From the NCBI GenBank assembly GCA_963744975.1, contig CAVUVR010000002.1, positions 2,785,069-2,849,068 of the forward strand: 64,000 nucleotides of DNA, in the 5' to 3' direction. Numbering within the stretch: the stretch's first letter is position 1; every line of letters starts with the position of its first letter. Made by a program: the position numbers and the translations under genes. Under the pieces are notes generated by a model that saw only the letters and a program-made list of their open reading frames with translations, did not search any database and had not been told where the DNA came from. The stretch comes from an uncultured Alphaproteobacteria bacterium. GTDB lineage: Bacteria; Pseudomonadota; Alphaproteobacteria; Rhizobiales; Xanthobacteraceae. Of this stretch, positions 18,787 to 36,389 are shown in pieces.

Positions 18787-18913
18787 CGTCGTCCCGGCGA
18801 ACGCCGGGACCCATACTCCGCGGCCGTCGTGCTTTGGGAGAATAGTCGTTTCAAGTTCCCTGCCCAATAACGGACGGCGGGGGTTATGGGTCCCGGCGTT
18901 CGCCGGGACGACG
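18787..18913. repeat. CGTC-type REP doublet, family B (69-nt spacer)
   Basis: Arms match 35759/36115. Confidence 0.9.
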
Positions 18914-22202: not shown

Positions 22203-22324
22203 GTCGTCCCCGCGAAGGCGGGGACCCATACGCCGTGTCGTCTCAATTTGAAGAATGCGTCGCAACGCTGCACTGTAATCACGCATGCCAGGGGTTATGG
22301 GTCCCCGCCTTCGCGGGGACGACG
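22203..22324. repeat. CGTC-type REP doublet, family B (65-nt spacer)
   Basis: Arms with compensated changes (GTCCCC/GGGGAC). Confidence 0.88.
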
Positions 22325-23918: not shown

Positions 23919-24040
23919 CGTCGTCCCCGCGAACGCGGGGACCCATACGCCGTGTCTTTTCCGCTTAAACGATGCCGTTGGACGGCCGACCTTAATCACG
24001 CATGCCAGGGGTTATGGGTCCCCGCGTTCGCGGGGACGAC
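23919..24040. repeat. CGTC-type REP doublet, family B (65-nt spacer)
   Basis: Inverted arms between convergent genes. Confidence 0.88.
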
Positions 24041-24050
24041 CCGGTGAGAG

Positions 24051-33243: not shown

Positions 33244-33364
33244 CGTCGTCCCGGCAAACGCCGGGACCCATAACCACCGTATTTGTTGTGAGTCCGAATG
33301 TTTCAACGCTTCAAACCAAATCGCACCGACGGTGTGTATGGGTCCCGGCGTTCGCCGGGACGAC
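33244..33364. repeat. CGTC-type REP doublet, family B (64-nt spacer)
   Basis: Inverted arms in a divergent intergenic region. Confidence 0.86.
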
Positions 33365-33448
33365 AGGGTGTTGATGGCGCGGGATAAACTCTGGAATGTG
33401 CGGCCCTGGGCCGATAGATTGCGCCCGCCCCCACCAGAGACATCAGCC

Positions 33449-35213: not shown

Positions 35214-35645
35214 TCACCGCCCGACGATGACGCCGATCACATTCGGCGCCGCAAGATACTTGTCCTCGATCGCCGCGCGCGCCGCTGCGCGATTTTCCGG
35301 CGTCAGCAGCCCGCGTTTTTCGGCCAGGATCATCCAGCAAAAACCCCACCAGTCCGTCAGCATGCCGTTGTCGTCGACGAGGTCGTAACCCTGCCCGGCG
35401 GCAAAAATCCGCGCCTGCGCCTCGTCCAGCGCATCGAGAAAGGCGTGGTCGGCGGCGGAGAACAGCTCGTCACTGAAATCATCTGTCGTGTAGCCCCACA
35501 CCGACAGGCACACCGCGTTGAACTCGCGGTCGAACTGGTCGTCATCCACGGGCTTGCGCCGCGAGACGGTATGCAGCCGCGACAGCGAGCGCGCGAAGTC
35601 GGCAATGCGGGTGAGCGCGAATTGATCGAAGGCGATGGTGGACAT
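35214..35645 (-). CDS. Hypothetical protein
   Basis: GAGG RBS, host codon usage; no family recognised. Confidence 0.7.
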   Translation of the reverse strand: MSTIAFDQFALTRIADFARSLSRLHTVSRRKPVDDDQFDREFNAVCLSVWGYTTDDFSDELFSAADHAFLDALDEAQARIFAAGQGYDLVDDNGMLTDWWGFCWMILAEKRGLLTPENRAAARAAIEDKYLAAPNVIGVIVGR

Positions 35646-35730
35646 GTAGTCCTCGCAAGCTTGAACAGACCATAGATGTTGTGTCGGCGATGCGCCGAAT
35701 CACTATGATATATCAAAGACTTGCTAAAGT

Positions 35731-35745
35731 GTTCTTAATTTGTTC
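35731..35745. promoter_or_regulatory. Alphaproteobacterial LexA (SOS) box
   Basis: Exact GTTC-TTAATTT-GTTC in an AT-rich divergent promoter region. Confidence 0.75.
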
Positions 35746-35758
35746 TATTACCTCTTTA

Positions 35759-36152
35759 CGTCGTCCCGGCGAACGCCGGGACCCATAACCCCTGGCGCCA
35801 AAATTATCGCAGGGAGTCGCCGCGCATGAACACCGCAGGCCCTTGGTACGTCTACATTCTCGCAAGCGGCCGGCACGGAACGCTTTACATTGGAATCACC
35901 AATAATCTTCGACTGGAGCAGCATCGCGCCGGCCGCGGCTCAAAGTTCGTCAAGCAGTACGGGGTCTACCGCCTTGTCTATGTCGAAGAGTATTCATCGC
36001 CGCTCGAGGCAATCGCACGAGAGAAGCAGTTGAAGAACTGGCAGCGCGACTGGAAAATCCAGTTGATCGAAGAGAATAATCTGCACTGTGGCGATCTGTC
36101 CCACCTGCTCTGAGGCCAGGGGTTATGGGTCCCGGCGTTCGCCGGGACGACG
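35759..36152. mobile_element. REP-bounded GIY-YIG cassette (candidate coding version of family B REP doublets)
   Basis: Perfect 38/38 inverted arms at 35759-35796 and 36115-36152 enclosing only the nuclease gene. Mobility is inferred. Confidence 0.6.
35826..36113 (+). CDS. GIY-YIG nuclease (YhbQ/UPF0213-like)
   Basis: WYVYIL...GTLYIGIT, AIAREKQLKNW.R.WK; GGGAG RBS; appears two residues short between NNL and the conserved R. Confidence 0.88.
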   Translation: MNTAGPWYVYILASGRHGTLYIGITNNLRLEQHRAGRGSKFVKQYGVYRLVYVEEYSSPLEAIAREKQLKNWQRDWKIQLIEENNLHCGDLSHLL

Positions 36153-36158
36153 AGAACC

Positions 36159-36389
36159 TCACATCCCCGACACCATCTTGTCCCCACAATAATTGGCGTA
36201 GAACTTTCCGCCACACTGCCGGCGCATCGCGGCGCAGCGCGCGGCGGGGGAGGCATTTTTCGCGACGCTGAACGAGCAGCCGAGGCCGTCGGCGCTGCGG
36301 CCGGCCTTGCCGGCGGCAAACGCCGCGCTGGTGGCGGTGATGCAGAACAGCAGCAAGGCTGCGGCGGCGATTTCGATGGTCAGTCTCAT
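36159..36389 (-). CDS. Small exported four-Cys hypothetical protein (76 aa)
   Basis: AGGAG RBS, signal peptide MRLTIEIAAAALLLFCITATSAAFA, four Cys in the mature part. Confidence 0.65.
   Translation of the reverse strand: MRLTIEIAAAALLLFCITATSAAFAAGKAGRSADGLGCSFSVAKNASPAARCAAMRRQCGGKFYANYCGDKMVSGM

Follow-up and report, generated by a model that had tools for sequence, protein, structure and literature searches.

A short gene for a GIY-YIG nuclease, lying between two inverted CGTC-tagged hairpin repeats in a Bradyrhizobium genome, very probably belongs to the Ssn family, to judge from its sequence, from the cognate repeats on either side and from comparison with the published description of the protein SsnA of Neisseria meningitidis. 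The pairing of such nucleases with hairpins has been known since Chenal et al. (2025, Nat Commun 16:2388, PMC11893778), and the locus is a new example of the Ssn/SRM system. Because that partnership is already published, the locus leaves the general picture unchanged; what it adds to the 2025 paper is a fixed genus-wide locus with repeated decay, two unique lesions in the protein, homotypic REPIN-like doublets of the repeat, and a correlation between the gene and repeat counts. It is also a clean natural setting in which to ask whether Ssn multiplies CGTC repeats as RAYTs multiply REPINs: canonical and lesioned paralogs, three compensated stem variants, 185 homotypic doublets and the top repeat density of 81 congeners are found together, and at the same locus some congeners have an intact unit, others a broken one, a solo hairpin or nothing at all.

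Layout of the locus

The features of the locus, and those of related elements in the window (the whole 64,000-nt stretch of DNA that was analysed, part of a genome of 5.95 Mb in 2 contigs), are collected in Table 1. The two arms are 38 nt long each, 100% complementary and separated by 318 nt, in which the gene, called here ssn copy 1, is the sole sizeable open reading frame. The left arm ends 29 nt before the ATG. Each arm consists of CGTC, an 8-bp stem GTCCCGGC/GCCGGGAC enclosing a GAAC loop, and then CCCATAACCCCTGGC; folded as single-stranded DNA (ssDNA) it forms a hairpin of -9.6 kcal/mol, in which CGTC stays unpaired on the 5' side of the stem. The CGTC tags of both arms point outward, and the arm cores are, in addition, 90% direct repeats of each other. 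An arm match did not occur in any of 100 shuffles, and a scan of the locus for promoters and terminators gave nothing above shuffles. The initial annotation, made from the letters of the DNA, had described perfect 38-nt inverted arms around a ribosome-binding site and a 95-aa GIY-YIG gene whose stop codon is 1 nt from the right arm, with five gene-free doublets bearing matching arms elsewhere in the window; every element of this layout is correct, and all five doublets were located.

Table 1. Features of the ssn locus and gene-free doublets (positions counted from the first nucleotide of the window; those of the doublets are approximate)
Feature	Position	Strand	Remarks
Gene-free doublet, tags outward	14956..15089
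Gene-free doublet	18787..18913		Whole element as ssDNA is one long hairpin, -57 kcal/mol, z -10.4
Gene-free doublet	22203..22324		Stem variant CCCCGCG/CGCGGGG
Gene-free doublet	23919..24041		CCCCGCG variant
Gene-free doublet	33244..33365
Left arm, Ssn-related hairpin repeat (SRM/REP)	35759..35796	+	Perfectly complementary to the right arm; folds as ssDNA
Parts of the left arm	35759-35762; 35763-35770 / 35775-35782; 35771-35774		CGTC tag; 8-bp stem; GAAC loop; these are followed by C and the tail CCATAACCCCTGGC
Ribosome-binding site GGGAG	35812..35816	+	9 nt 5' of ATG; read from sequence
ssn copy 1, 95-aa single-domain GIY-YIG nuclease gene	35826..36113	+	Sole sizeable ORF between the arms; Pfam GIY-YIG
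Right arm, identical repeat on minus strand	36115..36152	-

Probable kinship with the Ssn family

Ssn proteins are small (<150 aa) GIY-YIG site-specific ssDNA endonucleases (PMC11893778). SsnA of N. meningitidis, a 94-aa protein with a single GIY-YIG domain assigned to CDD cd10448 (GIY-YIG_unchar_3), binds the repeat NTS (CGTCATTCCCGCGMAVGCGGGAATCYRG) as ssDNA only and cuts a few nucleotides upstream of it, exclusively on the strand that reads CGTC and then the hairpin; three further homologs likewise bind and cut their own repeats, which makes four purified members in all (PMC11893778). 'Ssn-related motifs' (SRM), with the consensus HGTCWYN(0-2)YYVSBRHN(0-5)WNVSBRGN(0-2)RNCYNB, are present on both sides of 42% of homologs. 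The role of SsnA in natural transformation was established by experiment, its residues Y6, Y17 and E64 were mutated, and the authors already remarked on the IS-like look of NTS-ssnA-NTS and on its likeness to RAYT/REP (PMC11893778).

Copy 1 resembles these proteins in many respects. Its ORF matches Pfam GIY-YIG (PF01541) with an E-value of 2.4e-16 over residues 7-78 and contains no other domain; its single-domain length of 95 aa compares with ~94-97 aa in Ssn; Y10, Y21 and E66 correspond to Y6, Y17 and E64 of SsnA, and the spacing between the two tyrosines is 11 in both proteins. As with Ssn, inverted CGTC hairpins of a kind dispersed in hundreds of copies stand on either side of the gene, and homologs have a wide phyletic spread. 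The arm, read as CGTC, 8-bp stem, GAAC loop and C-C-A, is built like the Neisseria NTS with its CGTC, 8-bp stem, GMAV loop and C-Y-R, although the stems themselves differ (GTCCCGGC here, ATTCCCGC in NTS). Compared with the SRM consensus, the strict pattern fails at one place, position 5, where the arm has G for W, and the rest fits. Homologs 51-53% identical to copy 1 are flanked by NTS-identical repeats (e.g., locus L093, with TGTCATTCCCGCGAACGCGGGAATCCAG) and served as a proxy for the comparison with SsnA. Two further differences from the described Ssn systems are the arrangement of 85% of the hairpins in tag-outward doublets of ~120 nt and two lesions in copy 1, a 2-residue deletion and the substitution W88C.

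By homology, Ssn would bind the hairpin once it has formed in ssDNA and cut a few nucleotides 5' of the CGTC tag, and the cut would be confined to the strand reading CGTC then hairpin. Since both tags point outward, the predicted cuts would bracket the unit, and every gene-free doublet as well, on opposite strands. The initial annotation had proposed that a small GIY-YIG nuclease recognises or nicks these hairpins, which is very likely by homology, as purified relatives bind and cut ssDNA beside such hairpins (PMC11893778). It had also treated the CGTC repeats as an orphan REP class, a description that no longer holds because the Ssn/SRM pairing has been in print since 2025. Its statement that surveys found no dedicated transposase for CGTC REPs agrees with the 2013 catalogue of Di Nocera et al. 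(BMC Genomics 14:522, PMC3733652), which covers CGTC-tagged REPs of Bradyrhizobium and Rhodopseudomonas. The arms described here are CGTC-tagged palindromes of the catalogued kind; the survey sought transposases, and the small GIY-YIG genes went unremarked there (PMC3733652).

The AlphaFold model of copy 1 has the GIY-YIG fold with a mean pLDDT of 80, and its best structural matches in the PDB, found with Foldseek, are 1zg2, 1ywl, Slx1 and UvrC. Sequence and fold searches of the PDB revealed no Ssn structure, only the generic GIY-YIG relatives UPF0213, Slx1 and UvrC, and no NCBIfam model matches the copy 1 protein. The nearest solved structures by sequence are those of the UPF0213 / YhbQ type (PDB 1zg2, 1ywl; E 6e-7), which share size and fold with copy 1, but are ~30% identical to it and do not have the C-terminal N-P/L-x-W-x-D-L motif conserved in its family; we know of no UPF0213 / YhbQ-type protein whose gene is flanked by repeats. 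A homing endonuclease of the I-TevI type was considered and rejected, as the 95 aa comprise a nuclease domain only and the site is chromosomal and intergenic.

Association of gene and repeats

The arm occurs 319 times in the genome at <=6 mismatches, and in ~120 tag-outward pairs genome-wide the spacer measures 41-60 nt. A longer spacer of less than 1.4 kb is seen in just two such pairs; these spacers, of 318 and 337 nt, hold the two close paralogs, copy 1 and a second gene, copy 2, so that both close paralogs (2/2) are found inside a doublet. All of the small GIY-YIG genes in the genome, four out of four, lie between CGTC-tagged repeats, each with a different repeat type. Among 30 loci from relatives, most homologs bear arms of this sort, and the type of repeat shifts with the protein clade. 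A wider set of loci was taken from one scan of named genomes of many phyla (80 named loci, with no Neisseria locus among them); 43 of the 75 testable loci have flanking inverted repeats, defined as >=16 matched nt within 200 nt, as opposed to 1 of 141 shifted control windows.

Repeats as dense as they are here, at 76 per Mb, might be expected to land now and then on either side of a short gene. Such a chance juxtaposition is refuted by the control windows and is further at odds with the 2/2 close paralogs and 4/4 small GIY-YIG genes, so that we assign it a negligible probability. The link between GIY-YIG genes and CGTC repeats that had been noticed at this one locus is real and far beyond chance in the paralogs, in the relatives and against control windows, and the enrichment of REPs beside homologs, which the initial annotation had put forward as a check, is seen against those windows.

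Two paralogs and the lesions of copy 1

Copy 2 is a 93-aa protein encoded on the minus strand, 73% identical to copy 1 and its sole other close paralog in the genome. The gene (G000:C2:2984554-2984835), which lies outside the window, fills the doublet C2:2984491-2984903 (locus L002, ~1438-1850), is canonical in sequence, and has hairpin repeats on both sides. The stem of its arms is the variant CCCTGCG/CGCAGGG, which occurs twice in the genome, both times in these very arms. In G002 and G019, congeners that do not have the gene, this variant is abundant. The distance between the two copies is 163.7 kb here and 162.9 kb in congener G011.

In copy 1 the frame is open, and Y10, Y21, R29, H33, E66 and N85 are all kept. 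Just before the invariant R29, however, there is an in-frame deletion of two residues, both of which are present in 121 of 121 closest homologs (120 database proteins and copy 2), and position 88, occupied by Trp in 120 of 120 homologs, is Cys. The deletion accounts for a Tyr-Glu spacing of 45 instead of the 47 seen in SsnA. These are the signs of decay that the initial annotation had read from the sequence (two residues short before the Arg; NLHC), and they prove to be real and unique among the 121 closest homologs. Since all 121 closest homologs have the two missing residues and the Trp is otherwise invariant, copy 1 is possibly inactive, and early decay is plausible in view of the frequent breakage of its orthologs.

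It may be, then, that copy 1 is a relic, already dead or on the way there, and that any Ssn activity in the cell comes from copy 2, whose Tyr-Glu spacing is the canonical 47 residues, as between Y17 and E64 of SsnA. The uniqueness of the two lesions argues for this, as does the ortholog at the same locus, which has been broken independently in at least four other species. On the other hand, the open frame with all catalytic residues, the perfect arms and the retained fold of the model would all suit a gene still in use, and the arm type of copy 1 (the G variant) is abundant in the genome with 206 hairpins, whereas that of copy 2 is not. On balance, we regard the relic as a serious candidate, to which we give a little less than even weight.

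History of the locus in Bradyrhizobium

The closest database matches of the locus bear Bradyrhizobium names. With a 3.3-kb query around it, the same flanks were found in all 80 congeners searched. The unit is present with an open gene at the syntenic site in G013, G075 and G083, and is seen, by match span only, in G011, G024, G007, G050, G006, G096 and G023. Elsewhere the syntenic gene is broken, by an in-frame TGA stop in G047, a frameshift in G015 and an internal deletion in G092; G012 keeps a decayed remnant. The comparison of relatives for empty sites, which had been suggested at the outset, yielded two sites without any repeat, in G010 and G056, and a solo hairpin in G022, which judged by its flanks (88% identity) is the nearest relative (congener flanks range over 73-88%). 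The G022 hairpin (L042, G022:C14) lies at the site syntenic to 35759-36152 and has a tag on each side (CGCCGTCC-GGCGTTCGCCGGGACGACG); it looks like the outcome expected of a deletion between two hairpin cores, which could leave such a state because the cores are direct repeats. These alignments show the REP-ssn-REP unit to be an old one, passed on vertically at one fixed place in Bradyrhizobium, where it has often been broken or lost.

In outward appearance the unit is IS-like, with perfect 38-nt terminal inverted repeats, and could be taken for a recently arrived mobile cassette that carries the gene as cargo of a doublet. Its presence at the same place in G013, G047, G015, G075, G083, G092, G011, G024, G007, G050, G006, G096 and G023 makes this very improbable; moreover, the genome has no more than two copies, each of them syntenic with G011, and doublets have no flanking target-site duplications. 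The initial annotation had taken the perfect arms to suggest recent arrival or homogenisation. Recent arrival is rejected on synteny with congeners and on the divergence of their flanks, and the perfect arms point to homogenisation or selection. In G075 and G083, both arms of the unit have the derived stem variant CCTGGCG/CGCCAGG, and derived variants common to the two arms imply that selection or gene conversion keeps the arms alike; the perfect arms here are explained in the same way. A fixed syntenic locus and the lack of flanking REPs beyond the random level were two findings that the initial annotation had named as counting against its proposal; the unit does lie at one locus throughout the genus, and homologs of the gene are enriched in flanking repeats over shifted control windows.

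Arms and proteins have diverged together, T-variant arms being found with all copy-2-type genes, and G-type arms and their derivatives with copy-1-type genes. A check of co-phylogeny, also proposed initially, therefore finds co-divergence, which we do not count as evidence of co-evolution, since physical linkage makes arms and gene pass on together.

Doublets of the repeat

The repeat is the commonest CGTC-tagged hairpin repeat of this Bradyrhizobium genome, and it is genus-specific, being found in 24 of 24 congeners and in 0 of 16 other genera. In this genome it is represented by 433 hairpins, 370 of which are within 185 tag-outward doublets; tag-inward pairs number 3, tandem pairs 1, and a control search with the reversed pattern had 0 hits. 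Among 421 scored hairpins, 206 have the stem CCCGGCG/CGCCGGG (G variant) and 199 the stem CCCCGCG/CGCGGGG (C variant), so that 405 of 421 carry a compensated variant and hairpin pairing is conserved. With the stem private to the flanks of copy 2, the genome thus has three compensated variants, two of them abundant. Doublets are homotypic in 171 of 185 cases (86 G/G and 85 C/C; 11 of the 14 other combinations are G/C mixed), from which it follows that the doublet, and not the single hairpin, gets copied, as is the case with REPINs. The median identity of a doublet to its best-matching other doublet is 86%, and most doublets are therefore old; one dispersed pair with unrelated flanks is 97.5% identical.

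No target-site duplications were found at the 185 doublets, where flanking direct repeats are no commoner than in shuffles. A TIR transposon or MITE of the DDE type was rejected, there being no excess of target duplications and no transposase inside the unit.

Several details of the doublets deserve a separate record. One tandem array (G000:C2:1366837-1367552), the sole tandem amplification of the element in the genome, lies outside the window and contains four to five C/C doublets of 97-99% identity with a period of 150 nt. The 185 doublets genome-wide share a base bias that is symmetrical between their two ends: on the tagged strand, G is scarce (6-12%) and C frequent in the 3-8 bases 5' of the outward tags (35747-35758 and 36153-36164 are examples in the window). 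The bias could stem from a preference for certain cut sites or targets, or the element could have a weakly conserved extension there. An ssn homolog with 60% identity to copy 1, from the uncultured alphaproteobacterium MFD06714.bin.1.101 (locus L053, ~1440-1480), is flanked by the C-variant arm (TGTCGTCCCCGCGAAGGCGGGGACCCATA), the type of the 85 doublets that have no cognate gene in the present genome.

Does Ssn spread the repeats?

A parallel is offered by the RAYT/REPIN system (REPtron) of GTAG REPs, reportedly described by Nunvar in 2010, by Bertels and Rainey in 2011 and by Ton-Hoang in 2012. The likeness extends to a gene flanked by its own REPs, to inverted REP doublets as the replicating unit, to a gene of single or low copy number that is vertically inherited at a fixed locus, and to the lack of target duplications. 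The differences are in the enzyme, which here is a hydrolytic GIY-YIG nuclease and not an HUH Y1 (IS200/IS605-like) transposase, and in the tag, CGTC as opposed to GTAG. The statement of the initial annotation that the locus mirrors the RAYT/REPIN layout consequently stands for the inverted doublets and the fixed-locus gene, fails for enzyme class and tag, and is to be read as a likeness of layout only.

The gene is shown here to be a low-copy, vertically inherited companion of a large doublet family, and the 185 gene-free doublets are REPIN-like partner elements. If the parallel extended to function, Ssn would be a trans-acting enzyme that multiplies gene-free doublets, as RAYT does for REPINs; doublets would be released, or their copying primed, by cuts 5' of the outward tags, and the host's repair or replication would complete the process. 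This is the hypothesis of the initial annotation, and the same idea is offered as a hypothesis in the discussion of Chenal et al. (PMC11893778). We consider the seeding of doublet copying by such cuts, and with it the whole proposal, rather unlikely, for all that several observations favour it. The prevalence of outward and homotypic pairs is what replicating doublets would produce, and the dispersed 97.5% identical pair fits as well. None of the four Y1-transposase (Y1_Tnp) genes of the genome has a CGTC repeat within 800 nt, on which ground a RAYT acting in trans on these repeats was rejected (0/4). This genome, with its two ssn copies, has the highest repeat density of 81 congeners, 76 per Mb, 2.4 times the next (31.5). 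Across 80 congeners, the median number of hairpins per genome is 86 in those with an open full-length clade-A ssn (n = 33) and 26 in those without (n = 47; Mann-Whitney p 6e-7), a comparison that is not corrected for phylogeny and employs a search pattern taken from this genome, and is for both reasons a lead and not proof.

Other observations are difficult to reconcile with multiplication by Ssn. No strand-transfer step is known for GIY-YIG enzymes, which are hydrolytic nucleases. The published enzyme cuts in one strand orientation only (PMC11893778), which means that a single strand of a doublet offers just one cuttable site. Repeats persist in genomes without any Ssn match (58 in G019), the 85 C/C doublets here have no cognate gene, the T-variant arm of copy 2, with its 2 hits, has not spread beyond its own flanks, and most doublets are old. 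Finally, kinship and the origin of the search pattern confound the correlation of counts.

A different role, which we hold to be possible but on the whole somewhat improbable, is that of a domesticated Ssn that uses the dispersed hairpins as marks for the processing of ssDNA, be it from incoming DNA or from intermediates of replication or recombination, with the repeats having been spread by other means. The experimental role of SsnA in transformation of N. meningitidis (PMC11893778) favours such a host function, and so do the fixed syntenic locus and the retention, in two species, of both old paralogs at a distance of 163-164 kb. The gene has, however, been broken or lost in many congeners (the stop in G047, the frameshift in G015, the deletion in G092, the remnant in G012 and the solo hairpin in G022), and a full-length match is present in only 34 of 80, which argues against an important housekeeping role.

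The most far-reaching version of the idea that Ssn multiplies doublets, and a distinctly improbable one in our estimate, would be that Ssn and tag-outward CGTC doublets form a second, non-HUH replicator of REPIN type, in which a GIY-YIG nuclease drives the doublets, and that this genome records a burst of two homotypic lineages. Such a burst, if true, could be linked to the unusual Ssn variant with its 2-residue deletion and W88C, or to the presence of two paralogs.

Neighbouring sequences and other small GIY-YIG genes

Upstream of the unit, the AT-rich segment CACTATGATATATCAAAGACTTGCTAAAGTGTTCTTAATTTGTTC (window positions 35701-35745) is nearly invariant in congeners, whether or not they have the ssn unit. 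A divergent ORF of 143 aa (35214-35645, minus strand) has no Pfam match, and the AT-rich segment is probably its promoter or operator.

The third small GIY-YIG gene of the genome is a frameshifted ssn pseudogene of another clade (C1:830686-830978, in the region G000:C1:830500-831010, L003/L039). It is flanked by a second type of CGTC repeat (CGTCAxGGCCGGGC...CCATCCACGTCT), with ~128 hairpins in the genome. The fourth gene, more distant in sequence, encodes ~100 aa (C1:433945-434250, in the region G000:C1:433800-434400, L004/L036) and has on either side a large composite palindrome made up from the motif CGTCATCCTGAGG, of which there are ~291 copies in the genome.
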